This document shows positions 9,001 through 44,882 of a stretch of DNA of 64,000 nt, piece by piece (the stretch's first letter is position 1; each line of letters starts with the position of its first letter). This stretch comes from a virus. Lineage: Duplodnaviria; Caudoviricetes. Position numbers and translations under genes: made by a program. The notes under the pieces were generated by a model that searched no databases, was not told where the DNA came from, and saw only the letters and a list, made by a program, of their open reading frames with translations. The stretch is from IMG/VR virus record IMGVR_UViG_3300033121_002003, positions 1,764-65,763 of that record. One strand, written 5' to 3'.

Positions 9001-9520
9001 CTATGGGCGCAAGCTGTCTGCTGTCGGGCTCGGCATGGCTGGCAACCGGGCCATGGCGCAAACGGAAAATACTAAGGCTCTGCCTAACGGAAAGTGGGCC
9101 ATGGCGACCAGTTATATCGGGCGGCAGGATGTGGTGCTGGTGAAGCTGCCGCCAATTGTGGTGGATTCGCAGAACCGCTCCACATGGGTGTCGCCGCGAG
9201 TGAATATCACGTCCCCCGCTGGAACCGATAACATGGTGGTGGAGTTCGGCTACGACACCAATTTCTATTGCCATGAGCAGCGTAGTGAAAAGTGCCTCGC
9301 AATCACGTCGGCGATCCCGACCGGGCAGCATCCCTACCGTTTCCCCGTCGAGGGCACTGGCGGGGTAGAATCGGGGCTGACGGGGGTATCCTGCACAAGC
9401 TCCTGCGCCGTTGATCTCCCGGCGATCAGTTCGCGGGTGCTGTATTACCGGGTGCGGTACCGGGATGCGGCAGGGGCGACACTGCGCACGGGGCCGACCG
9501 AGGTTGTGGCGGTGCCGTAG
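6098..9520 (+). CDS. large beta-rich, Cys-containing secreted/adhesin-like protein (1140 aa)
   Basis: Long ORF; hydrophobic segment CYLFLALALVCSGA; Ig/FN3-like N-terminus (GVTNTQAVIRYTAP...RALQAATLHY) resembling Bryobacteraceae hypothetical proteins as recalled. Confidence 0.7.
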   Translation: MLYDTQKHRIGFHFGYRHGSNIGAACYLFLALALVCSGAVTDLRIIGVTNTQAVIRYTAPTTTACTVEVSEEADLDPLVNDVNTTLFSGSNSDSRTGAVSRGRERVFVAGTRTFETAADGERYSRALQAATLHYVEVTCGSDTATTTFTTSTVPLGNTRPDPVAYPRPASPLGKSWFPTRLLTDRDACYIDPHSGVKVCNLALPGDISYAVNTGLGFESASGTNWTNPGNISVAGGGTADYNGASCAGPTDCDWLLLTNAFTVTDTFPTIDYTTVTLTGSGSDATAANRQVELCIVFTGSSCYADSVRKTITLPTSSGAVTAGTTNAGDNWLYTYAGAYSAKTWNDNGGFKIALRKTTNVGTISIDLAQWGAGRSLATRTGSGGNTDRCQAVADVSGFYFCTGFQGNGSSGAVYRIHGETGEHRYLGILPTVSVTGVGSEGCSSEYANWDNSTPGVFYCAVKTALWKYTYIGDGTNKSIRYSGQQSDWSTTALTGNGTNTIGPKVQTFTQAHPDKYPTEFDPSKFPCSYVGTHGTNHLVTCARGSQDTYGWLAVLNSDGSAAIAAWEFYKHPFGRWCAIHSTEVIGDQPIFMIATQVLKEGVVGGGPYRTTLSGAIDGSTTTVVVASDTPTSSFADTTLYAMGVGDVFSVDQEWFKITAKTGTTLTVQRARNSTGAASHSDGATVQMQCATPTGAAFEAYVAFLPTWDYVNDPYGEDQTGNSTIWINPYNGHFTTRQHLAAAQPAFAIGTVGQNLYATTKRPNYNTSQSDNPNFAGVSAGNPGLTMQTHPSFHNVSDPTVSRNFWLDVRPFVGGSSIMRQTTGCTTTNAAYPAANGCAVARVSGTSNIYLVTRAGNSTSEANYPATAKYFPLHGKEGESRMITWVGGPGVSVSDSDHYKGCWAVVDNECISGSSAGDVYVVIPSKTTYFWCEGGETSSNDYDTCVTPQSDQLGQLMQIGAIAPQRDNIYGRKLSAVGLGMAGNRAMAQTENTKALPNGKWAMATSYIGRQDVVLVKLPPIVVDSQNRSTWVSPRVNITSPAGTDNMVVEFGYDTNFYCHEQRSEKCLAITSAIPTGQHPYRFPVEGTGGVESGLTGVSCTSSCAVDLPAISSRVLYYRVRYRDAAGATLRTGPTEVVAVP

Positions 9521-9539
9521 AGGGGGGGGGAGAGTAGGT

Positions 9540-11555
9540 ATGGCTAAGAAATTAAAAACCGACCAGGTGACAACTCCGCCGGCTACTGCAGCCTTTGCGG
9601 ATTCGGTACCTGCGGATCTGCCGGTAAATTATGAGGTCTTTCTCCAGGCCCAGCCGGGGCCGCAGCTGGAAGTTCTTATCCGTATGGAGGATGAGATTTT
9701 GTTTGGCGGGGCTAGGGGTGGAGGCAAAACCCATGGTGGGATGCTGTGGTTGATTAAGGGCAATCCGGATTTGCCCCAGGACGATCCGGTGAATATAAGC
9801 TATGTTAACCATCCTAGGTATAGAGCGTTGGTTTTGCGCCGGCAGTTGGATGACTTGAAGGACTGGATTGATCGGGCACAGCAGTTTTTCTGCGCGGAGT
9901 CGGGAAGTCCGTTGGGGGCCAAGTATCAGATCCAGAATAAAACCTTTTTGTTTCCGTCTGGGGCCAAGATCATCTGCGCCCACCTCAAAGACGAGGCCAG
10001 TTTTCATAAATACCGTGGTCACCAATACCATAGGATATTGTTTGAGGAATTGACCCAGATCCCAACCTTGGAATTGTATTTGGAATTGCAATCCAGCTGC
10101 CGCAGCCCGCATAAAGGGCTGAGGCCGCAGATGCTGTCCACCACCAATCCGGATGGGCCGGGATTGGATTGGGTGAGGAAACGGTTTTTGAAGCATCCCA
10201 AAACTGGGTTGCGGGTACCGGGTAGGACGGTTATTGAGGAGGCTTATAAAGATCCCCGGACCCGGAAGACGGTTACCCTTACCAGGGTTTTTATCCCATC
10301 CACCATTGTGGACAATCCCAAACTGCTGGAGGCCGACCCGACTTATTATGTCCGGCTAAGGGCCATGAGCCCCGCTAAGCAGCGGGCCTATATCCACGGG
10401 GATTGGGATGCGTTGAGTGGGAGCCAGTTTTTTGAGGACTTTCGGCCGGAAGGGCCCAGGTATGGGGAGCCGGCGTGGGCCAGTCATTGTATTAATAGGA
10501 AGGATATTGAAATCCTCAGTTGGTGGTGGCGCGGGTATAGCATGGACTGGGGATATAACCACAGGTTGTGTATTTATGGAGGGGCTAAGCAGGAACCCAC
10601 TGGGAGATTGATTGTTTTTGATGAACTGACCATGAGAAGGACAGGGGCGCAGGAAGCCGGGAGGATTTTTGGCAAGCGGATTCTGCCGCAGTTGATGGAA
10701 ATGGATGTGCCCCGGATTCCCATGTTTGTCAGCCATGATGCGTTTCATGCCCGGAATGCGGATGCGGGGAATAACCCTTATTCGGTGGTGGATTTGTTTG
10801 CCAAGGGGATTGAGGAAGTGATTGGGAGGGATTCGGTTTATACTCCCAGCAAGCAGGAGTTGGAGGTGCTGGGGGAATCCGAAGCCCAGGATTGGTTGGG
10901 GATGGACTATATGGAGATGCGGGATAGGATTGCCAAAGCCAGGGTGGTGATTAGGAAGGCTCCGAATGCTAGGATTGCGGGATGGGAGCTGGCTAGGAAT
11001 TTACTAAACTGGCGGGGGTTTGATGCCAACCCGCAGGATCTGGATATGGAGTATGCTTTAAAACTACTTCATGGGCCGGGAGGGTCGGCTAGGTATATCC
11101 AGTATTACAATACGGTGCTGAAATCGCATAAAAGGGAAGACCTTCCCAAGATGTTGATTTGCAGAGATGCCTGCCCTTATTTGGTGGATGCCATTCCCCG
11201 GGCTATTTATGATGTGGATGGGGAGGATGTGAAGAAGGTAGATGCGGATCCGGAAACCGGAGAGGGTGGGGATGACGAGATCGATGCCTGGCGGTATTTG
11301 GTAGCGGGGTTTGCCAAGAGCCAGAGCCAGGAGCCGCGGGAGCTGCAGTTGAGGAAGATGTTTGCCAAGATTGCGGCCAAGTGGAATGGGGAGATCCCCG
11401 GGCATTTGGTGAGCCAGGCCTGGGACGGGGCGAATAAGATGTTGGATAAGGATCAAAGGGAGAAGTTGGCGGGCGGGTTTTCTATCCCAAGAGTCAAGCG
11501 GCCGGCGGGGTTGAAGCAGTGGCTTACGGGCGGGAATGGGTTTAGGATACAGTGA
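9540..11555 (+). CDS. terL: terminase large subunit
   Basis: Start ATG 9540 (MAKKLK); Walker A FGGARGGGKT; Walker B ILFEELTQ; TTNPDGPG motif; nuclease SMDWGY ... DDEIDAWRY. Confidence 0.92.
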   Translation: MAKKLKTDQVTTPPATAAFADSVPADLPVNYEVFLQAQPGPQLEVLIRMEDEILFGGARGGGKTHGGMLWLIKGNPDLPQDDPVNISYVNHPRYRALVLRRQLDDLKDWIDRAQQFFCAESGSPLGAKYQIQNKTFLFPSGAKIICAHLKDEASFHKYRGHQYHRILFEELTQIPTLELYLELQSSCRSPHKGLRPQMLSTTNPDGPGLDWVRKRFLKHPKTGLRVPGRTVIEEAYKDPRTRKTVTLTRVFIPSTIVDNPKLLEADPTYYVRLRAMSPAKQRAYIHGDWDALSGSQFFEDFRPEGPRYGEPAWASHCINRKDIEILSWWWRGYSMDWGYNHRLCIYGGAKQEPTGRLIVFDELTMRRTGAQEAGRIFGKRILPQLMEMDVPRIPMFVSHDAFHARNADAGNNPYSVVDLFAKGIEEVIGRDSVYTPSKQELEVLGESEAQDWLGMDYMEMRDRIAKARVVIRKAPNARIAGWELARNLLNWRGFDANPQDLDMEYALKLLHGPGGSARYIQYYNTVLKSHKREDLPKMLICRDACPYLVDAIPRAIYDVDGEDVKKVDADPETGEGGDDEIDAWRYLVAGFAKSQSQEPRELQLRKMFAKIAAKWNGEIPGHLVSQAWDGANKMLDKDQREKLAGGFSIPRVKRPAGLKQWLTGGNGFRIQ

Positions 11556-16702: not shown

Positions 16703-17182
16703 ATGTCCTGGTTGAGGATCTTTGAAGCATACCGGGATTTGGAAGCGGAAAAGGTAGCGGCCGAGGCCCGAGCGGAGTTTCTGCAAGATCAGGTTAGCCA
16801 GCTGCAAGCCCGAGTGGAGACCCTGGATGAACGGTCTCAACAGGCCCAAAGCCAGCTGCTGGCAGATAGAGAAAAGGTAGCGGATATGTTTGCCGTGAGG
16901 GTAATGGAAGAGGGGGTTTATGATCAATCCCGCCAGCATCCTGCAATGAAGCGTGCAGGTGGGAGCCAGCCAATTCCTGCCCCAGGCCCGCAGCGCATAC
17001 CCGCGCATTTGGTGGCGCGGGCACTGACCAAAAAGGCTTTTGAGGACGACCACCGGCGGATGCAGGAAGAAGCCGCAGAGCTGCAAAAGGTAGCGGAGGG
17101 GCAATTGGGATTGAAGTTGGGGCCGGTAGGGCCGCCAGTGGGGAAGGAAGGGACTGCTGATGCCCAAGCATCCGCTGGTTGA
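16703..17182 (+). CDS. coiled-coil hypothetical protein
   Basis: Start ATG 16703 (MSWLRIF) after GAAGGAG. Confidence 0.6.
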   Translation: MSWLRIFEAYRDLEAEKVAAEARAEFLQDQVSQLQARVETLDERSQQAQSQLLADREKVADMFAVRVMEEGVYDQSRQHPAMKRAGGSQPIPAPGPQRIPAHLVARALTKKAFEDDHRRMQEEAAELQKVAEGQLGLKLGPVGPPVGKEGTADAQASAG

Positions 17183-19583
17183 TGCCTTACGGCCGCATTT
17201 GCGGCGGTATATCCAGGAGCGGGTATTTCCGGACGTCGATCCGGAGAAGTATTTTCAGCTGGCGCTAGCCCGGCGGAGCTATCTCTACTGGGATGGGTTT
17301 CAAAATGTCTATCCCCAGGTAGATCATGGGGTGGTTTACAATTACCTACCCGTACCCCAGCCTGGGCAGGGGCAGTATTTTGAAGATTCCCAGCGGGATG
17401 TCCAGGCCCTGTTTGATGGGAATATCAACATGGTCCGGGGAGATGGGAATAAGTTTGTAGCGGTGCTATCTAACCGGGCGCCGAATGTCAAAGCCATGCC
17501 GCTACAATCAGACTCGGAGGATCTGCAGAAGAAGGCCAAGCTGGCGGATAAGATCCTGATGGCGCTGCGCCGGAGCTGGGATGTGGATATCATCCAGCAA
17601 CAGATGGCGTTTAATGCCTGGACGTTTGGGACTTATTTCCCCCATGTGTATTGGGAGGTGGATCCTCAGAAATACGGCAAGTTGTCTGTGGGGAAGTTTG
17701 AGGAGAAACAGCTGATCATGCAGGGTCAGGCCTGTATGAGATGTGGGGTTCCTTATCCAGAACCTCAGCGCCCGTTGATGTGTGAACAATGTGGGGGAAC
17801 TGATTTTGAGCCCCTGGAACCTATCACCATTCCCTATATGGAACAGACGGGGGAGGAGACATTTCCTATTGGCGCCCCCAAGATAGTTATGGCTACGGTG
17901 GTGGATTTCACCGTGCCTTTCTATTCCAAGGATGTGGAAGATGCGGTATGGGGATGGTACGACCAGGATATTGATTCCGGGCGGCTGGTGCAGGTGTTTC
18001 AGGACGACCCATTGATGACTCAGGCTGTGGAGTCGGATGGGGGTGGGTTTCCGGGATGGGCAACTGCCAGTCAAACCGGCCAGACTGCTCATATTACCCG
18101 GGAGTTGATGGCTAGCAAGGTGGGGAGCCCGCTGTTAAAAAAGCGGTCCCGCTGGAACTTTGGGCAGTTCTGGATTCACCCAGCCCGGTATTGGTCTATT
18201 CCCAGTTCCTGGAAAGTAACGGGGATCAAAGACGCCCGGGGGGTGGCAATGCCTGCCCGGCCTATGGGGGAGGTGCTGAGGGAAGCTTTCCCGCGGGGAG
18301 TGCGAGCCCAGTTTGTGGAAGGGGAGTTGATGGGGCTGCGGGATGACGCCCTGGCGGATTGTTGGGGATATGGAAAGCCTGGGGTTAGCCCTTATATTTA
18401 CGGCCATCCGGTAAGTTATGATCTGATCCCGATCGCGGATATGGTCAACTTCCAGCACGCTTTGTTTTCTGAAACGGTGCAACGGAATCTTCCTCTTACC
18501 TTGATCAACAATGAAATGATTGATCCGGCGGCGTTGCAGGGAAGGGCAGGGATTCCCGGGGAGTTCATCCCAGTCCGGCCGATGAGTGGGCAGAAAATGT
18601 CTGAAGCCCTCTACAACGTCCAGATGGCTAAGATCGAACCCCAATTGGCGACCTGGATTCAGGGGTTGGTAGCTACGGGCCGGGAAATAACTGGGGTGCT
18701 GCCGGCGATTTTTGGTGCAGAGTCCTCCAGCAATACCGCTAGGGAAGCGGAGCTGCGCCGCAACCAAGCTCTGATGCAATTGTCTCTGTCCTGGAATGGG
18801 ATGAGAAATGCCTGGCGCGGGATTTACATGTGCGCCCTCAAACTAATGCAGAAAAATGGGGCGTGGGCGCTGAAGAACTTTGGGCTGACCGAACAGGAAG
18901 TTAGGTTAATGGATACCCTGCTAACCCCGGAAGGCAACTTGGCGGGGTTTTATTTGGATATCGAAGAAGCCATCCCTGCTACTTGGGGTCAGGTTAGGGA
19001 TGCGGTGAATTTTGTGCTCCAGGGCGGTCCGGAGATGTGGCAATTGACCGGAGCTGGGGATCCAGCCAACATGTCCAAGGTCCACACAGCACTGGGGATC
19101 TCTGGATGGCGGGTGCCGGGTAATGATGCCAGGACGTTTGTGATGGAGGAAATTACCGGGATGCTGGCAGAGCAGCCTTTCCCCGGGCCTATGGGCCCAG
19201 TTCCCAGCCGGCCGGTGGATACTTTGTTATTTGTTGTTGATCCCGGTCTGGCATTGCAGGTGGTTAAGGAATGGCTGGTCAGTGATGACGGCAGGAATCA
19301 AAGGGAAATCAACCCCGGCGGGTATATGAATATCATGGCTTTGGGCTTGGCAATCAATCAGCAGGTTATGATGCAGCAGCAAGCTGCTGCAATGGCCGCT
19401 GGTGGAATGCCCCCGGAGGGTGGGGAGGCTGGAGCTGGACCAGCCGCTCCGCCTGCCGGTGCAATGCCGGAAGGGGGAGGGCCGGCGGGAAATCCGTTGT
19501 TGGCGGCGCCCCCGCCGGGAGGGGTTCCTCCGGCTGGCCCGGATGCGCAGGCCCGTCAATTAGGAGGTCCCGTACCAAGATGA
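17160..19583 (+). CDS. portal protein
   Basis: 807 aa, helical, directly upstream of scaffold-like and capsid genes; Pro-rich tail. Confidence 0.7.
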   Translation: MPKHPLVDALRPHLRRYIQERVFPDVDPEKYFQLALARRSYLYWDGFQNVYPQVDHGVVYNYLPVPQPGQGQYFEDSQRDVQALFDGNINMVRGDGNKFVAVLSNRAPNVKAMPLQSDSEDLQKKAKLADKILMALRRSWDVDIIQQQMAFNAWTFGTYFPHVYWEVDPQKYGKLSVGKFEEKQLIMQGQACMRCGVPYPEPQRPLMCEQCGGTDFEPLEPITIPYMEQTGEETFPIGAPKIVMATVVDFTVPFYSKDVEDAVWGWYDQDIDSGRLVQVFQDDPLMTQAVESDGGGFPGWATASQTGQTAHITRELMASKVGSPLLKKRSRWNFGQFWIHPARYWSIPSSWKVTGIKDARGVAMPARPMGEVLREAFPRGVRAQFVEGELMGLRDDALADCWGYGKPGVSPYIYGHPVSYDLIPIADMVNFQHALFSETVQRNLPLTLINNEMIDPAALQGRAGIPGEFIPVRPMSGQKMSEALYNVQMAKIEPQLATWIQGLVATGREITGVLPAIFGAESSSNTAREAELRRNQALMQLSLSWNGMRNAWRGIYMCALKLMQKNGAWALKNFGLTEQEVRLMDTLLTPEGNLAGFYLDIEEAIPATWGQVRDAVNFVLQGGPEMWQLTGAGDPANMSKVHTALGISGWRVPGNDARTFVMEEITGMLAEQPFPGPMGPVPSRPVDTLLFVVDPGLALQVVKEWLVSDDGRNQREINPGGYMNIMALGLAINQQVMMQQQAAAMAAGGMPPEGGEAGAGPAAPPAGAMPEGGGPAGNPLLAAPPPGGVPPAGPDAQARQLGGPVPR

Positions 19584-25789: not shown

Positions 25790-26008
25790 ATGAATTTTGG
25801 ACAAGCAATTGAGGCTTTGAAAGCCGGGCATAAAGTCGCTCGTGCGGGCTGGAATGGGAAAAACATGTGGCTGGCGTTACAGCGGCCAGATACCAATTCC
25901 AAAATGACACTGCCCTACATCTATATGTTTACGGCCCAGGGGGATCTGGTTCCCTGGTTGGCCAGCCAAACGGATGTACTGGCGGAGGACTGGTCGATTC
26001 TGCCCTAA
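25790..26008 (+). CDS. tad2: DUF2829 / Tad2-like anti-Thoeris sponge protein
   Basis: [27 protein letters not shown]...[14 protein letters not shown], the DUF2829 signature. Confidence 0.8.
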
Positions 26009-32969: not shown

Positions 32970-35900
32970 ATGTATGGGACAAAAAAGAAAACCGCTCCGG
33001 ATGAAGTGCCTCTCGAGCCGATTGCTCCCGATGAGGTAGCGCTGGAGCCTATTGCTCCGGATGAGGTAGAGCTGGAAGCAATATCCCCGGCCAAGGGATT
33101 GACATCTCCATCCCCTATCCCCCATACTGGGCCTATCGGGGCGTCCCAACCCCGAAACCGAGGTCCTATTCCTACCTCGGAGCATCCTCAACCTGTGGCG
33201 GCGGAGGTATCCTCCAATCCCCAAAGACGCGCCTCCGCCGCCCCTCCACCACAGGTTGCCAAAAAACCTGCTTTTGCTCCCAACCAACAAATAGAAATCC
33301 TTCCCCGGCAGGAGTCGGTTTCTCCCTTGCCCCCGGCGGCTATGCCCCCGGCACCCATCCCCACCGGCCTCCAAGGCCCGCCGAGTAAAACTCCCCCTGG
33401 GGAATTCCCCCGGGTGGGGAGGGATATCCCCACCCCGGGTCCCCTACCTGGATTCCAAGGGGTGGAACCGGGATTGCGGCAAGCTGTCCAAGGATTCTCC
33501 CGTGCCAGCTATGGCACCGCCAGTGCTGGGATGGGCGCCGGGCCTGCCCAAACCACCCCAACTGCCCCTGCCCAGATTGATCCGGATGCCTGGCGCCCCC
33601 CTACCCTGGCAGGAAGGGTAGGCGCCCTGGCTGATATGGTGGAAGGTCTGGAACAAGCCTCCGCGCCTTATGTCCTGCCTGCTTTGGGGGCGGCGGCCCT
33701 AACCTCCGTCCCTGCCATGGTGGCGGTGGGAGCTGGGGTGGTTGGGGGTTATGCCCGGGAGGAAGGAACCCGCCAGGGATTGGAATACCTGGGAGTGGAT
33801 CCCCGCTATGCCAAGTTCGCCGGTAAGGTAGCGGGATGGTGGCCAGAATCCCACATCCCTGGTTATACCAGCGCTGTAACCGGCGCGGCCGAGGCCCTGA
33901 TCCCCAACTCCCCCACCAAGCAGTTCTCTAGCAGCCTGGAAAAATCCATTGGTGAATTCAACCAGATGGTGGATGAGGTGGGGAAGCTGGATCCCTCATC
34001 CCCCGAATACAGCCGGGCGATTAACGAATTGAAATCAGGTGAAGCCCAATTGGGGATAGCCGCCAACACCTTATCCCAAGCCAATTTGCTGGGGGCCCTC
34101 AAATCAGCCCAAGTAATGGGGAAGATGAGGAATGTGCCGGAAGGCATGGGGACAGCAGCTGAAACAATCCCATCCCCAGAAGCTCCCTTATCCCCAGATA
34201 TTATCTCCCTGGAAGGAATTGAATCCCAGGAACCGTTATACAAATCCTCCACAACCCAATACAACTTACCAGATGACCTATCCGCTAGGGTCCAATTCCT
34301 GGGAGAGCAGATCCCCGATTCCGCCCTAGCCGAATCTGGCCGGGAAACTCAACCCCATTTAACTGTTAGATATGGGATTGAGGAAGACCCCCAGGTGGCT
34401 ATTCCCAAAATCCGCCAGGCCTTGGCCAATCAATCCCCCATTACTGTTAAATTGGGGGAGACCTCCTTACTCCCCGACTTAGGGGATGGGGAGGTTCTAA
34501 AAATCGACCTGGAAAAATCCCCGGAACTGGAATCGGTACGGGAAGCCATTGCTAAATCAGGAGTCTCCCACATCCCTGACAAAGGGGACGAGCTGGGGTA
34601 TTCCCCCCATATTACCGTGGCCTATCTAAAACCCGGTGAGGGCCAGCACCATATCGGCGCCAGCCCCCTCACCGGCCAGGAGCTGGTGATTGACCGGATC
34701 TGGGTAGGGGACCGCCATGGCAACCAGTATGAAATCCCATTTGGCAAATCCATGGAGGGGATCCTGGGGCCCGAGCAGGAAGCCATTAGGGGAATGATGG
34801 GGGAAGGTCAGGCCTTGGGCCAATCCACTCCTGACCCATCCCAGGCCCAGTTTCATGTGGTCCAAAAAGGCCAGCAGGCCACTTCCCAATTGTGGACCCC
34901 CGATCAGCTATCCAAATCCCTTCCCGGGTATAAACTGGACGTACTCCCCAATGACGAGCGGGCCAACCCCGGCGGCGCCACTCTGGGGATTGAGACCCCC
35001 TCCGGCAAATGGGCCAAGCTGGTGGTTACCCGCACCCGCAACCTCAACGGCGACCCCAAATTGGTAGAGGCCCAGCTAGGCCGCCCCGCCAAGCCGGATG
35101 AAATCATTATGGGCCAGTATGAATCCCGCGGGTTGCGGGAGCAGTCAGTTATCACCCTGGCCGGAGCCGCCGGCCCTGATACCCTGGACCATGAACTGTT
35201 CCATTACGCCTTTGATACCTTCCTAACCCCCCAGGAACAGGCGGCCATCCTAGCTACCCATGGCTCCGAAGAAGCCGCGGCCATTGCTTACGGCTCCGGC
35301 CAGGGCGGGCTGGATCCCGGCCTGGGGAGGATGAAAAAGCTCTTTGCCGAGATCCACAACAAGTTCTATCCGGATTCCAAAGCCACCCTAGAACGGTTGC
35401 GCCAGGGAAAAATCTGGGAAAGGGAAGCTAGATATGGTGTCGACACCCGCCCCGGGATCTATCGCGATCCCCAAGGTCGCCCCCGCTTCAACCTGGGCGC
35501 CCTGGCTGACAACTTCCTCGAGACCTTCGATCGCAATCTGGTAAGGTTTGAATCCAACGAACCGGTTTACCTGGCGGCTACGCTGGCCGCCCCGGGTACC
35601 AGCCAATCCATCTCCCGGGAGGCCCTGATCGGCCCGGCCCAGGAAATCGCCCGGACCATGCACGCCGGAGGCTATGGTCAGGAATCCCTCCAACAGGGAT
35701 GGATAGCCTTTGCCGAGGTCTTGATTGACAACCGACTGGCAGGGGTTCAGGGCCGGTGGGCGGACCTGGCCAATGCAGTGGAGAAAGCCACCCCTAAAGA
35801 ACTCCGCAAAGCCCTGGCCAGGAATTCCGAAGCCCCAGATGGGCCATTGGCCCGGGTGCTGGATCGGGTAGAGGCTGATCAACCCATGAAGGATGGATCC

Positions 35901-38270
35901 CGGTATAGCAAGGTTGAGGCTCTGCTAACTAAAAAAGACTACGCCGGAGCCAAAGCCTACCTGGCCGCCACCTTCCGCCACAATGCCTATACGGTTAAAC
36001 GGCTGGATCTCCAGGGGATGTATGGCAAGCAATTAAAAGAGTTCGCCCAGGACCCCCAGTTTAAACAAGCTTTGCAGGTCTACAAATCCAAAGTCGAGGC
36101 CCTGTTTGCCAGCCACCATTTAAAAAACGAGGGCATCCTATCCGCGGATCTGGGCCCGCTGCAAACTTATTATCCACTGGTACCCCAAAAAGAATCCGGC
36201 CCCCTGCCGGTGTGGCAGGAATCCGCCAGGAAGCTTGGTTATTGGATCCGTCCCCACAACCCCAATAATTATTTCACCACCGGCCTGGCCACCAAAGGCT
36301 ATGACCCCGAATTGACTACATTACGCAGCCGTCTAACCGCCTCGATCCACGGTGGGAATGTAGCCCAGTTCCTGGATGTCATGCGCGGGACTGGATTAGC
36401 GGTGAAGGTCACTGACCCATCTGCTGCCACTGCCAAGTTCCGGGGAGGGGAAGAACTCCCGGTGGCGGTGATCCCTATCGGCTCCGCCCAATCCATTTCG
36501 GTAAAGGGCCAAGCCTTAAAAGTCCCTCCCCAATATATCGCCGTGCCGCAGGCCCTGGGGCCCACAGTGAAATCCATTGTTCTGGGAGAGGGCCCTGGCG
36601 GGTCATCCGCTTTCCACTCCGAAGGCTTTGTGGAGGACGCCGTCAACCGCATTACCGGCTGGAGCTTGGTGGGCCCGGCCGACGCCGCTTTCCACGCTCA
36701 AGCAGTATTATCATCTCTGGTTGCAGGAACTCCCTATCTCAAACAATCCAACGCCTTTAATTCGTTCATGGCCAATCTTCCCGTGGCCAAGGCCTTCACC
36801 GCTATGTGGGTAACTCAGCGCCGCCCCGCAAGTTATTTTGTCTCCCCCGAAGGATCTGCAAAGCTGCTCAACATGGCCAAGGGGGGAATGCTCAACCCCC
36901 GAATTGGGTCGGTGGCCTGGGATAAAGACTACGCTGATCTGTTCGGAGCGGAGTGGAAACCCCCCATCACTAACAAGGGCGCCTGGCAGAGAACCGTGGA
37001 TGAGAAAGAAGCCGCCAAGGCCGGGGGCTTGGGAGCCAAGCTCGCCAGTTATTTGGACGTCGCCGGCCGGGTGGGGGATCTGGGTACCTCCGCTATTGTG
37101 TTTGGTCATCCAGGTGAGGTTGGGGGAAAGTCGGGCTGGATCAGAAATCACATTCTAGGTCTGGATCTCCGCGCCCGAGTGGCGTTATATGACCTCCATA
37201 CTACCCTGTTCCCTGATGCCCCTCTCCCAGACCGGGCCAATTTCGTCAACCAGGCTATGCAATACAACTGGGGCCTGCAGTCCCAAATGGAACAATACAT
37301 CAAGGGCTATGCCGGAACCCGCTTTACTTCTGTATTCTTCACCGCCGGCTATTCCATGATCCGGGCTGGGGTTCGGGCAATGAATCCCATCGGTACCCGC
37401 CATGGCCTCAATCGTCTGGACCCCATTGGCCGGCAACAACTGGCTCGAGCTCAGCGGGCTTTCTCCGGCGGCATTACCGGGATGGTTGGGGCTTGGGCCC
37501 TTATGAATCTGGGCGCCACTGGCAAATGGCCCTGGGATCCTGACCAAGAGGGCGGCCCTGTTCCCCTCAACACTATCGCCCTGCCGGATAAAATCCGCCA
37601 ATCCGCTGCTGGCAAGGCCCTGATGGGAGACCCCAATAAAGGTGCCCCCCGGCAGGGTTATATGCCCATGGGATTCTTCAACGCCGCGGTGAAAAAAGGC
37701 CTGGACGTCACTGGTGTCAAAGCTGGGTATGACGAATCCATGCGGCTGGGGAGGTCTGGCCTGCCCGATCCCGTCGGTCGACAATGGATTGGGCAGGAGG
37801 CTTTACGATCGTCCATGAACACCTTCCTCCATCCCCTTACCAGCGGTCCCATTCCCCGCGCCGGGATGGCGGCGATGGGCATGTCTCCCTGGATCGGCCC
37901 GATGTGGGACCCTATCACCGGCCGGAACCAGTTCACCCTCCGCACGGAGTCTCGGGCTGCGGGATCTTTGTTTGAGGCCACTGGTACTGGGCTGGCCAGA
38001 GCCGCCGGCCAGATGTCCCCGTTTGTCAACTGGGCCAACGAAGCTGGAGCAGAGGCTTTTGTGGGGTCTCCCATGTCAGGCCCTACCAAGCACGATGATG
38101 GTGCCGCCTGGGCCAAGACCCTGGCGGATATCATGATCCCCCGATCCCGCCCCGTGGCCTGGGACATCCGCAAAAAAGCCGAACAGGCCCAGGAACTGGT
38201 TAAAAGCCGTAAGCAGGTGATTAAAAAACAGCACAACCAGGCTAATAAATCTGCGCAGCGTAGCCAGTAG
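32970..38270 (+). CDS. large polyvalent internal virion-type protein with 2H phosphoesterase (Acb1/gp57B-like) and HExxH peptidase-like domains
   Basis: 1766 aa; PHLTVRYG (H463) and PHITVAY (H547); LDHELFH (H741); last gene of structural arm. Confidence 0.75.
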   Translation: MYGTKKKTAPDEVPLEPIAPDEVALEPIAPDEVELEAISPAKGLTSPSPIPHTGPIGASQPRNRGPIPTSEHPQPVAAEVSSNPQRRASAAPPPQVAKKPAFAPNQQIEILPRQESVSPLPPAAMPPAPIPTGLQGPPSKTPPGEFPRVGRDIPTPGPLPGFQGVEPGLRQAVQGFSRASYGTASAGMGAGPAQTTPTAPAQIDPDAWRPPTLAGRVGALADMVEGLEQASAPYVLPALGAAALTSVPAMVAVGAGVVGGYAREEGTRQGLEYLGVDPRYAKFAGKVAGWWPESHIPGYTSAVTGAAEALIPNSPTKQFSSSLEKSIGEFNQMVDEVGKLDPSSPEYSRAINELKSGEAQLGIAANTLSQANLLGALKSAQVMGKMRNVPEGMGTAAETIPSPEAPLSPDIISLEGIESQEPLYKSSTTQYNLPDDLSARVQFLGEQIPDSALAESGRETQPHLTVRYGIEEDPQVAIPKIRQALANQSPITVKLGETSLLPDLGDGEVLKIDLEKSPELESVREAIAKSGVSHIPDKGDELGYSPHITVAYLKPGEGQHHIGASPLTGQELVIDRIWVGDRHGNQYEIPFGKSMEGILGPEQEAIRGMMGEGQALGQSTPDPSQAQFHVVQKGQQATSQLWTPDQLSKSLPGYKLDVLPNDERANPGGATLGIETPSGKWAKLVVTRTRNLNGDPKLVEAQLGRPAKPDEIIMGQYESRGLREQSVITLAGAAGPDTLDHELFHYAFDTFLTPQEQAAILATHGSEEAAAIAYGSGQGGLDPGLGRMKKLFAEIHNKFYPDSKATLERLRQGKIWEREARYGVDTRPGIYRDPQGRPRFNLGALADNFLETFDRNLVRFESNEPVYLAATLAAPGTSQSISREALIGPAQEIARTMHAGGYGQESLQQGWIAFAEVLIDNRLAGVQGRWADLANAVEKATPKELRKALARNSEAPDGPLARVLDRVEADQPMKDGSRYSKVEALLTKKDYAGAKAYLAATFRHNAYTVKRLDLQGMYGKQLKEFAQDPQFKQALQVYKSKVEALFASHHLKNEGILSADLGPLQTYYPLVPQKESGPLPVWQESARKLGYWIRPHNPNNYFTTGLATKGYDPELTTLRSRLTASIHGGNVAQFLDVMRGTGLAVKVTDPSAATAKFRGGEELPVAVIPIGSAQSISVKGQALKVPPQYIAVPQALGPTVKSIVLGEGPGGSSAFHSEGFVEDAVNRITGWSLVGPADAAFHAQAVLSSLVAGTPYLKQSNAFNSFMANLPVAKAFTAMWVTQRRPASYFVSPEGSAKLLNMAKGGMLNPRIGSVAWDKDYADLFGAEWKPPITNKGAWQRTVDEKEAAKAGGLGAKLASYLDVAGRVGDLGTSAIVFGHPGEVGGKSGWIRNHILGLDLRARVALYDLHTTLFPDAPLPDRANFVNQAMQYNWGLQSQMEQYIKGYAGTRFTSVFFTAGYSMIRAGVRAMNPIGTRHGLNRLDPIGRQQLARAQRAFSGGITGMVGAWALMNLGATGKWPWDPDQEGGPVPLNTIALPDKIRQSAAGKALMGDPNKGAPRQGYMPMGFFNAAVKKGLDVTGVKAGYDESMRLGRSGLPDPVGRQWIGQEALRSSMNTFLHPLTSGPIPRAGMAAMGMSPWIGPMWDPITGRNQFTLRTESRAAGSLFEATGTGLARAAGQMSPFVNWANEAGAEAFVGSPMSGPTKHDDGAAWAKTLADIMIPRSRPVAWDIRKKAEQAQELVKSRKQVIKKQHNQANKSAQRSQ
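32994..33085 (+). repeat. 30-bp tandem repeat x3 (APDEVxLExI)
   Basis: APDEVPLEPI APDEVALEPI APDEVELEAI. Confidence 0.8.
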
Positions 38271-38849: not shown

Positions 38850-39076
38850 GGCAGGCCATCCAAATAAACCAATCCACTATTCTTAAAGGTGGTAGGGTCC
38901 TCCCCATCATTGGTACCCGGAAGCCAGGGCGCGGATACCATAACCCAATAAACCCCTCCGATGTTTACTGGTGGAGTCCATACCGTGAGTAGTTTATATT
39001 CGTGTTCCCATTTTGCAGCTACGTGGGCTCTGCGAGGATACCACACACCCTCGGCTAGGTTTGATCCGGCTTTCAT
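38846..39076 (-). CDS. hypothetical protein
   Basis: 4-bp overlaps with both neighbours. Confidence 0.55.
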   Translation of the reverse strand: MKAGSNLAEGVWYPRRAHVAAKWEHEYKLLTVWTPPVNIGGVYWVMVSAPWLPGTNDGEDPTTFKNSGLVYLDGLP

Positions 39077-39600
39077 ATCAACTTCCCTCCTTCCTTCTCC
39101 CGGTTCTCTTCCTTGTGGTCCGCTCGCTGCTGGTTATAAGCCAGCTTCTCCATCATGGCCCCCGGGACATCCAATCCTAACCACCCAGCCAAATCAAAAA
39201 TCCGGATCATCGCATCGGCCAATTCCACCTCGATCATCTGGCGGTGGGGGAGGTGATCATCCATCAACCCTTTCCGGTAGCCCTCCGTGGCCTCCCCCAA
39301 CTCACTGTGTTGGAGATCCAGCTTGGCCAGGACAATCAAAGCCCGGGCGTATTTTTTCATCCCCTCTGGCACCGAATCAATCACCGCCTGGTCTTTTTTC
39401 CACCATCCCGCATTAAAGCTGCTTTGGTGGCAAAGCCGCTGAACCAGAGTGAGGATGTGGACATAATGGGCATATAGGGGCTGCTCCACCGACATGTGTA
39501 AGGTCTGGGCGCTGGCCACCTCCTGTTCCCGGGCTTCCCGCCCCCGCTCTACGGCCTCCAACATCGCCTGAGTTAGCTGTTCTGTGGTTTTGTTTTCCAT
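39073..39600 (-). CDS. MazG-like nucleotide pyrophosphohydrolase
   Basis: LQHSELGEATEGYRKGLMDDHLPHRQMIEVELADAMIRIFDLAG (ExxE...ExxD), KLAYNQQR. Confidence 0.85.
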   Translation of the reverse strand: MENKTTEQLTQAMLEAVERGREAREQEVASAQTLHMSVEQPLYAHYVHILTLVQRLCHQSSFNAGWWKKDQAVIDSVPEGMKKYARALIVLAKLDLQHSELGEATEGYRKGLMDDHLPHRQMIEVELADAMIRIFDLAGWLGLDVPGAMMEKLAYNQQRADHKEENREKEGGKLI

Positions 39601-40784: not shown

Positions 40785-43700
40785 TTAGCCATTCAACCAT
40801 TCCTCCAATCCTTTAATCTCCTTACACTGTGCCCAGCTCTCCCCCAGCCCGGATATGGAAAACTCGGCCTCGCACTCCAACCCTTTCCCCCCGGGCAGGA
40901 TTAAATACCTGCTCTCCTCCTGCATTTTCCTTTGCATCACCCTAATCGCCGCCTTCTCCAACCCATTCCTACAAACCGCCACCAGGGAATCGTGGATCTG
41001 ATTGCAAATCCCAAACTCCTCCCCGGCCCCACAATCCTCCAGGTCAATCATGGCTTCCTTAATCCGCCCAAACGCATCATTGGCGGGTAAAAACGCAATC
41101 GCCGCTTCTGCATCATCCCCAGACTCCACCCGCCATCTCATTCCATTTTTATCAGTCAGAACCTTCCATCCCCACTTAGGCGCCTCCAACCGATGCAACG
41201 GCTTGTATCTTCGGACACAATTAAACCTCCTGACATACCCATGCGCGGATACCAAATACCCCTGCTGGTGGGCCCGGTCCTGGATCTCCTCCCGCCACTT
41301 ACAAGTAATGGGAAAGGCCTCATCCAAACTCCTCACAATCCTCTCCGCATCCGCTTTGCTGGCAATGAACTCCTGGTTCTCATGCCACAGCCTGCCCGGC
41401 CCCATCCCAAACCCATATCCCAAAATAGTAGGCTTGCCCTGCTTGTCCCTGACAAACTTGAAATTCACCGGATCGGGGCTGGCTGCGATCTTATACCTGG
41501 GTTTCTTATCCCCCTTCAACTCCTCAAACAACCGCATCATATCCTGATCGGACATCTTCACCAGTTCATCGGCTTGGTAGATATTCACCAGGCGGGTAGC
41601 GGTGAAGAAACTGTGCATATCCAACCTGGCCAACCGCATATACAGGGGATCGTTGGCCTCGAACCCTGTGGTCAGAACATGAAAGGACTTAAAATCACCC
41701 TCAATGATCCTATACCCAGGCGGCGCCTTGACCATCCCCCGCAATAGTTGGGCGAATTGTTGGTTGTGTTTGGGGAAATTCTGGCAGTTCCCAGTGATTG
41801 CTACCTTTCCATTCCGGCGTACCACCACCGTACCTTGGGGCATGGATACGCAATAAACCCAACCCTGATAATAATACTCCACCGGTTGGAGGTTGGTTGT
41901 CATGGAATAATCCTGGTCGGTTGCGTCCACTTGCCAGTTAGGCTGGGTTAGTTTATCGTTATAATACTCCCTAACCTTTGCCCTTCGCCCGGCCAGACAA
42001 GTTAGGATCTGCACCCAATCAGCGTTAGCCTTATTGCTACTAGAGTACATTGTTCGGCCTTCCGCATATCCATCCCAAAACCAGACCTCTTCAGCTAGCA
42101 AACTAAACGACTCTTGATCCAGATCCATAATCCAGGAATCAAATTGCTTACGTTGCCGAATCCATTCAGGAACTTCCCCGGCATGTATATAATACCGGCG
42201 CTCTCCATTTTCCTTGTCATAGCGGGAATAGGCATAACCCAAATCACCCAAGGCCATCTCTAGCCGCTGCTGTTTTCTTGGTTTGCTAAACCCAAACTCA
42301 ACAGCTGTGCAACTACGCAACAAATGGCCATCTGCCTGCAGGGCCGCCAGAAATATGATCTCAGCCCGGGATAGTTTTGTTTTTCCTCCCTTATATATCC
42401 CGGCTTGCATCTGTTGGTAATCTTCTGGATAGTCTTTGGCCGCTACCCATTGCCATTTTTTGGTTTTGCGATTCCTTACCAGGCACCGATGATCTGGAGT
42501 CATAAGCATATCTAACTGCTGTTCGGTATGAATATGCACCATAGGGCCACTATGCCAATTTCGGATATAACTAGTGGGCCGCGCCAGTGATATAACCCCG
42601 GATTTTGGATTGTATTGGGCCACCTGCAGCGCCGGATTCAAATCTTGAAACAGCTTCCAGCCGTCTTCGGTCAGGATCTCCGTGTCAGAGGAAAAGCAGT
42701 TTGGGTTACGGCTGGATAATTGGCCGGTAGCGGGAGAGGTGGTAAAAAACGAATGTACTCTCCCATCTTTTCCGGGCTGCCAACCCTGGGATGGTTGCTT
42801 CCATTTCCCTGTGGCCTGGAATTTTTTCTCCATAGCCTCATATTCCGGGCTCCCCGGCCCCGGACCCCCGACATAGGTCCCGGTCATTTTCTCTATCTCT
42901 TTGTACTCAATCCCCAACTCCAACACCGGATCCTTCACCCGGTTGTTCAACCGCCGGAGTTCCTTTTTATCAGTGGTTTCCTTGTCCGACCGAAACGCGG
43001 TTGGTACTTTCCACTTGGCCAGTTCTTCCGCCCGGGCCTGACAGTCCGGGCAGTCCTGTGCCCGCTGATACCCCAATCCATGCCGGCAGGGTTTATCCAA
43101 CAGTCTTTTGATTTCTTCTTTTCTTTTCCATCGAATATAGTCCCGGATCTGGAAAGTAGAGTTGGGATTGAATTCCTTCAATTCCACCCATCTCTCCACC
43201 GGCACCGGAGAATTCTTTAATACAATCTCCCTAAGCTCAAACCGCTTGCCGGACTTGGGATGGAATGCCACCTTGGCGGCGGTGGCCGCCGCCACTGCTT
43301 CTTGCCCCTGTTTTCTCAGCCATAACGGCACCTGCTTTAGGCCTTCTTTTTGTTTCGCTGGCCGCAAACAATCCGGGATCAGGGGTTGGATCTGGGCGAT
43401 CTTTTCCTTTTTCAGCCCCTGCAGATACCTCCAGATCTGCATTCTTTCCTGCTCGTCCACCGGCATTCCCCGGCGCTGCATCTGATCCAACGACTTGGCC
43501 GACAGTTCATTGACCTGCCGCCGATAGCCCTGCAATAAAGATACCTTGGATTGGGGATGGCTCAGGCCGGCCAGGTTTTTCTTCAACCATCTCCATAGCC
43601 GTTGGGGATAGTCCACATCCAGGGCCCCGTAAAATCGCTCATCGGATGTGAACATATGCTTCCAACAACCGGCCAGGGAAATCTCCGGGATCATACTACA

Positions 43701-44882
43701 AGCAAACTGCAGGCCTTGGGGCAGATCCGGCTCCCAGTGATGCCACATCTGCATCAAATCGTGATAGTTGCCAACAGGAATGGATCTGTTGATCAATTCC
43801 CTAACTTGGGGCTGCCACAACCCCAAATGCCCATCCATCCTCTTAATCAACATGGCATCGTTGTAATGCCGGTCAAATCCCCTTCCGTTGTAATCCAGCT
43901 TGTCATTGGTACACTCCAACAACAAGGTCAGCTTTTCCAGCACCCACGGTTCCCACCCCGAAACAATCGCCTGTCCCGGCCGGAGGCTAGCCTGGACCTG
44001 ATTGACTTCCCGCATGGCATGGTCATACTCCGACTCATCTGTGGCTGAATAAGTGAAATTAGTCTCGTAGTCATAAGAAATAGCCAGCTCCGGATTGGCC
44101 CGGGCATCCTCAATCATCCGATCCCAATCTGCCGGGCCGGCGTTTAACACATACCCCTGCTGGTCAGTTCCTGCTATCTCCCCATAATCCTGGATATGGG
44201 GGACCTTATTCCCCAGGTCCCGGCTGGTTATCCCCTTATGCGCCAGGGCAATCGCCAACTTGATATCCCTAATCAGCACCGACAACAAAGCCATCCCGCC
44301 GCCCTGGGCTTTTTCCGTCTTGGCCCCGGTTTCCTGGGATTTCTCCTTACTCCCCCTAGCCAGGAATGATGGATGGTAGGTCAGCACCACCGGCAATCCC
44401 CCATACTCTGGCTTGGATTGATAAACAAATCCCCTATCTCTTAATACCTGGAACTCTGTCCTCCCCGTGAGTTCGTAAAACGCCGTAGCTCCCAGCGCCA
44501 CCAAACACTTAATCCCCTTTTCCCTAAACAGCTGCTGATTCCACCCCCGGCAAATTCCTTTGGCCTCCTCCTCCCACGGCATCCCCACCAGCTGATTGTT
44601 ATAAGGCTGCCACCATACCGTGTTGGTGATTAAATAACTGTCCCGGGGAAGCCCTATATTCCTAATACAATTCGCCAAGACCGCCCCGGCCTCTGCCCAC
44701 GGCCTAAAGGGCATCCCATCCTTTTGCTCATGATGCCCGCCGGCCTCCCCCACTAGGGCCACCCCTGACTTCCCCGTTCCTTCTGAGCAAACCAGGGGCA
44801 CCCGGGCGGATCTCCCGCCCGGCCCCACCCCTGGTACCTCCCAACTCACTCCCTTGGTCGGGTATTTCTGAAGCATTTGCAT
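40785..44882 (-). CDS. polA: uracil-DNA glycosylase (family 4-like) + 3'-5' exonuclease + family A DNA polymerase, intein-containing
   Basis: UDG VGEAGG...TN...YHPSFLAR; ExoI YDYET, ExoII NGRGFD, ExoIII YGALD; TGQLSSRNPN|CQN; motif A GDF; motif B R..K...LG.GFG; motif C IHDS. Confidence 0.92.
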   Translation of the reverse strand: MQMLQKYPTKGVSWEVPGVGPGGRSARVPLVCSEGTGKSGVALVGEAGGHHEQKDGMPFRPWAEAGAVLANCIRNIGLPRDSYLITNTVWWQPYNNQLVGMPWEEEAKGICRGWNQQLFREKGIKCLVALGATAFYELTGRTEFQVLRDRGFVYQSKPEYGGLPVVLTYHPSFLARGSKEKSQETGAKTEKAQGGGMALLSVLIRDIKLAIALAHKGITSRDLGNKVPHIQDYGEIAGTDQQGYVLNAGPADWDRMIEDARANPELAISYDYETNFTYSATDESEYDHAMREVNQVQASLRPGQAIVSGWEPWVLEKLTLLLECTNDKLDYNGRGFDRHYNDAMLIKRMDGHLGLWQPQVRELINRSIPVGNYHDLMQMWHHWEPDLPQGLQFACSMIPEISLAGCWKHMFTSDERFYGALDVDYPQRLWRWLKKNLAGLSHPQSKVSLLQGYRRQVNELSAKSLDQMQRRGMPVDEQERMQIWRYLQGLKKEKIAQIQPLIPDCLRPAKQKEGLKQVPLWLRKQGQEAVAAATAAKVAFHPKSGKRFELREIVLKNSPVPVERWVELKEFNPNSTFQIRDYIRWKRKEEIKRLLDKPCRHGLGYQRAQDCPDCQARAEELAKWKVPTAFRSDKETTDKKELRRLNNRVKDPVLELGIEYKEIEKMTGTYVGGPGPGSPEYEAMEKKFQATGKWKQPSQGWQPGKDGRVHSFFTTSPATGQLSSRNPNCFSSDTEILTEDGWKLFQDLNPALQVAQYNPKSGVISLARPTSYIRNWHSGPMVHIHTEQQLDMLMTPDHRCLVRNRKTKKWQWVAAKDYPEDYQQMQAGIYKGGKTKLSRAEIIFLAALQADGHLLRSCTAVEFGFSKPRKQQRLEMALGDLGYAYSRYDKENGERRYYIHAGEVPEWIRQRKQFDSWIMDLDQESFSLLAEEVWFWDGYAEGRTMYSSSNKANADWVQILTCLAGRRAKVREYYNDKLTQPNWQVDATDQDYSMTTNLQPVEYYYQGWVYCVSMPQGTVVVRRNGKVAITGNCQNFPKHNQQFAQLLRGMVKAPPGYRIIEGDFKSFHVLTTGFEANDPLYMRLARLDMHSFFTATRLVNIYQADELVKMSDQDMMRLFEELKGDKKPRYKIAASPDPVNFKFVRDKQGKPTILGYGFGMGPGRLWHENQEFIASKADAERIVRSLDEAFPITCKWREEIQDRAHQQGYLVSAHGYVRRFNCVRRYKPLHRLEAPKWGWKVLTDKNGMRWRVESGDDAEAAIAFLPANDAFGRIKEAMIDLEDCGAGEEFGICNQIHDSLVAVCRNGLEKAAIRVMQRKMQEESRYLILPGGKGLECEAEFSISGLGESWAQCKEIKGLEEWLNG
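41787..42698 (-). mobile_element. intein (304 aa) with LAGLIDADG-like endonuclease region
   Basis: Begins CFSSDTEILTEDGW, block B MLMTPDHR, LAALQADG, ends VAITGN followed by +1 Cys; removal restores SSRNPNCQNFP. Confidence 0.92.

Follow-up and report, generated by a model that had tools for sequence, protein, structure and literature searches.

A giant polyvalent-type phage protein carrying an intact 2H phosphoesterase domain and probably delivered with the DNA

What is an enzyme doing inside the giant protein that closes the virion-protein arm of a tailed phage, and on what might it act? The question is raised by a gene at 32970..38270, plus strand, in a 64,000-nucleotide window of the IMG/VR virus record IMGVR_UViG_3300033121_002003 (Duplodnaviria; Caudoviricetes); the window comprises bases 1764-65763 of the 65.8-kb record, whose completeness is estimated at ~59% (CheckV). 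An original prediction, made from the sequence alone, held that this 1766-residue protein is ejected with the phage DNA and pre-packages an Acb1-like 2H phosphodiesterase that destroys defence signals at the moment of infection. The interpretation is supported in part: the 2H domain and the terminal position of the gene both stand, while membership in the Acb1 family does not. The reading we put first, tentatively and at a little less than even weight, is that the giant is an ejected polyvalent protein carrying an intact 2H domain, with host defence nucleotide messengers as the most likely substrates. The gene and the parts of it that bear on the enzyme are as follows.

32970..38270, plus strand: whole gene of the polyvalent-type giant, 1766 residues, supported by its open reading frame, by full-length relatives and by the same terminal place in two loci that encode relatives (L002 and L004)
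34242..34754, plus strand: 2H phosphoesterase domain, residues ~425-595, supported by PF13563, an AlphaFold2 (AF2) model, Foldseek and VIA matches and clade-invariant motifs
34356-34364, plus strand: 2H motif 1, HLT, with H463 (PHLTVRYG), read in the open reading frame
34608-34616, plus strand: 2H motif 2, HIT, with H547 (PHITVAY), read in the open reading frame

Both motifs are present in the reading frame, 84 residues apart, just as had been reported. From composition, 1.4 HxT and 3.3 Hx[ST] triplets are expected in the giant, and four Hx[ST] are observed; because two HxT triplets are unremarkable in a protein of this size, the 2H call rests on profile and structural evidence instead. The Pfam model PF13563 (2_5_RNA_ligase2) matches the whole protein with an E-value of 1.9e-10 and the excised domain with 46.8 bits, against a cutoff of 27 bits. 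The AF2 model of residues 421-607 (m7f91f9c58ee9), built from a 34-sequence alignment, has a mean predicted local distance difference test score (pLDDT) of 87.9 and a predicted template modelling score of 0.82, shows the alpha+beta fold of 2H enzymes, and matches solved members of that superfamily by both Foldseek and VIA. Both H-x-T motifs are invariant in the 34 clade sequences, and a phmmer search of the domain against PDB sequences returned chance matches only. From profile, model and motif conservation we conclude that the 2H domain is real and catalytically intact, which bears out the fold assignment of the original prediction.

The more specific claim, that the domain is Acb1-like, began from the resemblance of the motif-2 flank to T4 gp57B. 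That likeness holds for about ten residues (Y-x-P-H-I-T-[VL]-[AS]-Y) and fails beyond them: BLASTP against T4 gp57B gives an E-value of 0.003 over 48 residues, and the hhalign alignment of the clade to the same protein is confined to 34 columns at motif 2, with a probability of 31%. Superfamily, HxT/HxT tetrad, motif-2 flank and phage origin are common to the two, but Acb1 is a compact, free-standing enzyme of ~150 residues with its histidines H44 and H113 spaced by 69 (Hobbs et al. 2022, PMC9117128), whereas the domain here is an internal module of ~170 residues with a spacing of 84. We compared the Acb1 base-stacking aromatics (Y12, W74, F107 and W147), E141 and the C-terminal lid; in the 34-column hhalign register, which is of low confidence, F107 falls opposite a Glu and Y110 opposite a clade-invariant Tyr. 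The Pfam model for Acb1, PF23474 (gathering cutoff 27 bits), has no match to this 2H domain at E<=1, and among 17 clade members 14 have sub-threshold matches, the best at 2.5e-6, with relatives scoring 18.8-25.9 bits and none reaching 27. In the same 17 sequences LigT_PEase scores 3.1e-7 at best and PF13563 far more strongly, 2.5e-16 at best. When the clade profile is compared with PDB sequences, the best match is 9q2g, the anti-CBASS phosphodiesterase PDE-9 of phage BCSR5 (8.7e-4; CBASS, the antiphage signalling system based on cyclic oligonucleotides), followed by plant CPDase (1.1e-3), YjcG (0.012) and FBB1 Acb1 (0.13). The structural comparison that had been proposed beforehand did retrieve 2H enzymes, but FBB1 Acb1 ranks only 35th by structural Z for the AF2 domain model (Z 10.2), and the Acb1-like identity is therefore retained at the level of the superfamily only.

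Nor is the domain a ThpR. The NCBIfam model TIGR02258 matches with a domain E-value of 3e-6 and both motifs in register, but at 27.2 bits, far below its equivalog cutoff of 65.7 (E. coli ThpR, as a control, scores 149.8 bits), and hhalign of the clade against E. coli ThpR yields nothing usable, only a wrong-register match with a probability of 0.8%. Identity to ThpR/LigT (TIGR02258; PDB 5ldm) and to B. subtilis YjcG (2d4g) is 11-19%; those are cellular stand-alone enzymes, whereas this domain sits inside a phage giant and has clade-invariant residues of its own, which beyond the tetrad comprise a D-G-R-E turn before motif 1, the Lys in V-V-K-V-D, and Y-x-P-H...A-Y. Because the profile, hhalign and NCBIfam comparisons fit neither Acb1 nor ThpR, we assign the domain to a separate 2H clade, LigT-like in size and modelled shape, with a motif-2 flank that recalls Acb1, and a member of neither family.

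The extent of this clade was gauged by an exhaustive HMMER search of cluster representatives, with the 187-residue domain as the query, which matched 3144 representatives at E<=1e-3, of which 1320 passed E<=1e-10. The best 150 matches were listed, two of which belong to the query's own family (P0003 and P0008); among the other 148 (P0009-P0156), 111 proteins are at least 1500 residues long and only seven fall under 300. The median length is 2304 residues and the maximum 7768, and the 2H module lies at a median relative position of 0.25 along the protein. The clade, in short, lives mainly inside giants. Against annotated phages, tblastn with the giant as query returned two remote 2H matches and no full-length relative. 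The best annotated-phage match to the 2H domain (PP885688.1, 263001-263435; 29.6% identity) lies in the 309-kb jumbo Tunturiibacter phage Tunturi_5, under a gene annotated as 'MutT/NUDIX hydrolase', which may be a 2H-NUDIX fusion or an incomplete annotation.

The remainder of the giant is divided as follows, with the corresponding region of one relative, P0007, given last.

32970..33614, plus strand: Pro-rich, low-complexity N-terminus, residues 1-215, with three PDEVxLEPIA-like repeats and 21-22 Pro per 100 residues
33666..33755, plus strand: sole strongly hydrophobic, membrane-helix-like segment, residues 233-262 (Kyte-Doolittle, 19-residue window, maximum 1.88)
35037..35459, plus strand: zincin-like HExxH module, residues ~690-830, conserved in P0007, P0037 and P0072
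35682..38144, plus strand: helical C-terminal module, residues ~905-1725 (~820 residues), common to other giants by local phmmer matches and modelled by AF2
L002 10868-12874: alternative insert of P0007, residues 290-958, at the 2H site of the other relatives

The N-terminus, for which no Pfam match was found at E<=5, is the most variable part of the protein (48-61% identity among close relatives, against 72-81% elsewhere), and the hydrophobic segment that follows it may have a membrane role. In the HExxH module, HELFH occupies residues 741-745 (nucleotides 35190-35204), with a G-S-EE-AAA-x-AY segment 20 residues further on; this motif and the downstream EE segment are both conserved in P0007, P0037 and P0072. 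Metal binding and peptidase activity are what this pattern suggests, and the module has no Pfam match. The C-terminal module has invariant columns in the alignment of relatives, and a basic tail beyond it ends the protein. AF2 modelling of residues 620-1766 from a 12-sequence alignment gives a mostly helical chain at pLDDT 52, for which Foldseek returns helical-solenoid noise only; for these reasons we make no claim of fold for this half of the protein.

Seven relatives of the giant were found in public metagenomes, of which P0002-P0007 count as full-length relatives, with 46-80% identity to it. Five carry the 2H module, always with both motifs at the 84-residue spacing and with 72-78% domain identity over an alignment free of gaps. 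The C-terminal module is similarly conserved (75-81%), and the 2H domain, maintained like the scaffold and well above the N-terminus, is therefore subject to purifying selection. Between the 2H domain and HExxH the distance is anything but constant: 192-194 residues here and in P0002, 274 in P0005, ~400 in P0003 and P0004, and 629 in P0008. In P0007, encoded at L002, the N-terminal ~290 and C-terminal ~1150 residues are kept while the 2H domain is missing, its place taken by an unrelated insert of 670 residues that has no Pfam match and a best Atlas score of only 0.76. The variable spacing and this replacement point to an N-terminal half in which cargo is exchanged while the scaffold stays conserved. 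The extra residues between 2H and HExxH in P0003, P0004, P0005 and P0008 belong to no recognised family. At L004 (12920-13020) the giant gene is broken within the zincin module by two in-frame stops and is called as two proteins, P0008 and P0006; a TAG stands in place of the Tyr right after HELFH, and a TGA replaces a Gly 19 codons later. Recoding was considered for this copy and rejected because the two stops are different codons.

Modules of the giant recur, moreover, in very different company. Local phmmer searches of the retrieved proteins found the C-terminal module in P0016, P0126, P0131, P0134 and P0149, always at the C-terminus, and the HExxH module in P0037 and P0072. By Pfam, P0149 joins 2H, an N6 DNA methylase and an SNF2 helicase to this C-terminal module; P0126 joins to it an SLT lytic transglycosylase, 2H, a methyltransferase and a histidine phosphatase; and P0134 joins to it 2H and a Strawberry-notch-type (Sbno) helicase. 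The order in P0037 is 2H, GGDEF, this HExxH module, ART-PolyVal. The 2827-residue P0072 matches the HExxH module clearly at residues 1893-1947 (domain E-value 9.8e-07), and another, weak match at ~1627-1709 that also contains an HExxH (domain E-value 0.03) may be a degenerate second copy.

These associations recall the polyvalent proteins of phages and conjugative elements described by Iyer, Burroughs, Anand, de Souza and Aravind in 2017 (PMC5512222). The giant combines at least two biochemically disparate domains (2H, the conserved HExxH and the shared C-terminal module), is encoded with phage late and packaging genes (the terminase and portal arm, an arrangement kept in L002 and L004), and has modules in common with recognised polyvalent proteins (P0037; P0149, P0126 and P0134). 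Like the proteins of that class it is a multi-module giant that places 2H alongside a zincin-like HExxH, and its modules are tied to ART-PolyVal, GGDEF, SLT, DNA methyltransferases and SNF2/Sbno helicases; it differs in that its HExxH and C-terminal modules lie outside Pfam and the latter is a lineage of its own. Judged by domain content and gene setting, the giant is a polyvalent protein in the sense of Iyer et al., and a new lineage of a described class. An Atlas feature search points to LPD38/LPD39 clusters, which neither Pfam nor hhalign to phi24B gp47 confirmed.

Would such a protein travel with the DNA? The original prediction had argued from its place as the last large gene of the structural arm, and this was borne out: the gene is both the last and the largest of the plus-strand virion arm, which also encodes terminase (9411-11555) and portal (17160-19583), and the same terminal place is kept in L002 and L004. 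Baseplate or distal-tail genes are absent from the arm downstream of it. The gene for P0149 belongs to a phage structural module, where it is flanked by a Phage_stabilise (PF11134) gene and a beta-helix gene. The closest precedent is gp47 of the Stx phage phi24B (vb_24B_48), which mass spectrometry found to be abundant in virions, which is invisible in capsid and tail maps, and which was interpreted as a capsid-packaged ejection protein (preprint 10.64898/2026.04.10.717836). At 2807-2811 residues, gp47 resembles the giant in being the last and largest late-region gene product, polyvalent, and equipped with a metallopeptidase module (MuF_C), and differs from it in a domain set of LPD5, LPD1, MuF_C and LPD38 (the last its conserved C-terminal domain) without 2H. 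P1 DarB and T4 Alt, packaged in the head and injected, follow the same logic of capsid-packed enzymes that act at entry, a comparison of principle only, although P0149, which shares this C-terminal module, does have a DarB-like make-up of methylase and helicase. Such partners of the shared modules, methylase with helicase, SLT and ART, have a sensible role only in a cell that has just been entered. Gene position and the gp47 precedent together suggest that the giant is probably delivered with the DNA in the virion.

Beyond the domain identities, modularity, gene position and conservation described so far, packaging, ejection, processing and substrate could be pictured as follows. The polypeptide would be made late, alongside the virion proteins, loaded into the capsid and driven out into the cell together with the DNA, with packaging and ejection served by the helical C-terminal ~820 residues and probably also by the Pro-rich and hydrophobic N-terminal part. 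The N-terminal half would act as a carrier of exchangeable enzymatic cargo, here a 2H phosphoesterase. The zincin-like module may cut the polypeptide to free that cargo, or may cleave a host protein; processing of polyvalent polypeptides by zincin-like peptidases was proposed by Iyer et al. (PMC5512222). Through its His-x-Thr pair, the 2H domain would carry out metal-independent transesterification and hydrolysis from the first moments of infection, most likely on cyclic oligonucleotides of the CBASS or type III CRISPR type or on 2'-5'-linked signals. Four observations lead us to favour messengers: the sub-threshold affinity to Acb1 together with the match to BCSR5 PDE-9; the adjacency of 2H to a GGDEF cyclase domain in P0037; a Tad2-like signal sponge encoded in the same virion operon; and the record itself, in which no Rnl-type RNA ligase and no RtcB were found.

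Several points weigh against this reading. The missing RNA ligase is weak evidence because the record is only ~59% complete. By fold and NCBIfam the 2H domain is nearer to RNA 2',3'-cyclic phosphodiesterases of the LigT/ThpR type than to Acb1. A 2025 survey of 75 phage 2H phosphodiesterases, 13 of them multidomain, found that specificity tracks structural group (10.1101/2025.08.21.671373); the domains purified there included the 2H modules of two multidomain proteins, and because two structural groups showed no cleavage of any of 18 messengers, messenger activity cannot be predicted from membership of the fold. The stops in L004 may mean that the zincin module is dispensable, or that this copy is defective or mis-sequenced. 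In the giant itself no Pfam LPD, PolyVal or MuF domain was detected (E<=0.1 to 5), a PDB sequence search with residues 620-1766 found nothing, so that no similarity of the C-terminal module to a solved ejection protein is detectable, and hhalign detected no sequence or profile similarity of that module to phi24B gp47 or LPD38. Incorporation into virions and ejection are, for the giant and its close relatives, what we infer by analogy.

The most serious alternative keeps the delivered polyvalent protein and has its 2H domain act on RNA instead of small messengers, which we regard as rather unlikely but worth serious attention. At entry the domain might trim or cut host RNA in the manner of a Usb1-like RNase, or it might serve as a 2',3'-cyclic phosphodiesterase and process the RNA ends left by metal-independent defence RNases of the host; both the LigT-like fold and the ThpR match would fit. 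The ThpR match, on the other hand, is a poor one by score and by hhalign alike, the record offers neither an RtcB nor an Rnl-type ligase that could complete a repair pathway, and 2H versions of polyvalent proteins have never been seen linked to RNA ligases (Iyer et al. 2017, PMC5512222). The same authors proposed that an injected 2H domain is either a Usb1-like RNase or a degrader of nucleotides from nucleotide-activated defence systems. Between these, the four observations given above lead us to place messenger degradation slightly above a role on RNA.

It is a good deal less probable that the giant is not ejected at all, but is a tail, tape-measure-like, assembly or non-virion protein at the end of the late operon, with a 2H domain that would work late, in the cell that produces the phage. 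Such a role would suit a C-terminal module whose length and helical content recall many tail-length or scaffold proteins, and a protein for which PDB searches, hhalign and Foldseek found no homology to known ejection proteins. Its position at the very end of the arm, where neither baseplate nor distal-tail genes follow, argues otherwise, as do the precedent of phi24B gp47 and the fusion of homologous modules to DarB-like methyltransferase and helicase, SLT and ART-PolyVal, whose logic is action in a newly infected cell. The tape-measure role in particular was rejected on gene position.

Least credible by far is that the domain is a true but divergent Acb1 family member with the broad anti-CBASS specificity of Acb1: the gp57B-like flank and the sub-threshold PF23474 matches in relatives favour it, but this domain lacks a PF23474 match, no relative reaches the 27-bit cutoff, FBB1 Acb1 ranks low by Z, the motif spacing differs, and a Glu is aligned, in a low-confidence register, with F107.

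The enzymes known to counter CBASS, Pycsar and type III CRISPR signalling, Acb1 and Apyc1 among them, are synthesised once the cell has been infected. Ready-made delivery of such enzymes by phages has been predicted since 2017 (PMC5512222), and our literature search found no experimental demonstration of it. A wider conjecture, which we consider less likely than not, is that the 2H clade of polyvalent giants (the 1320 clusters at E<=1e-10) reaches the cell in the virion as a phosphodiesterase, is present there before any phage gene is expressed, breaks down defence second messengers while they are being produced, and is paired here with the Tad2-like sponge of the same operon. If true, the delivered clade would be the first enzyme against signalling immunity that comes pre-packaged, and it would be very widespread. 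Taken by itself the giant represents a new lineage in a described class and introduces no new principle, a role for 2H having already been proposed in 2017. It is nevertheless a clean and intact representative of a very large 2H clade that lies almost wholly inside giant, probably injected proteins, and the exchange of cargo among its relatives supplies natural controls that either have or lack the 2H module.

The surroundings of the gene were examined as well. No promoters or terminators beyond shuffled expectation were found around it, PHROGs holds no family for the giant or for its five nearest neighbours in the virion arm, and none of the putative nozzle, capsid and portal genes matched anything in PDB by sequence, so the label 'podovirus' is not confirmed. 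The Tad2-like protein, of 72 residues (PF11195, E-value 1.7e-29), is encoded at window 25790-26008 on the plus strand, within the virion arm and just upstream of a gene for a 662-residue protein; its gene has the same placement in L004 (2341-2562), and in L002 a weak Tad2-like gene follows the giant. At window 39073-39600, on the minus strand and just downstream of the giant, a 175-residue protein shows a weak MazG-like match (PF12643, E-value 0.0085, under the cutoff), and the same arm of L002 contains a dGTP_diPhyd_N gene. Further along, at window 40785-44882 on the minus strand, lies a 1365-residue DNA polymerase in which UDG and PolA are fused and residues ~728-1048 form an insert. This insert looks like an intein because it matches PHROGs of unrelated intein-bearing families (PhoH, RNR and ThyA); in L002, UDG (235 residues) and PolA (933 residues) are separate genes without the insert.
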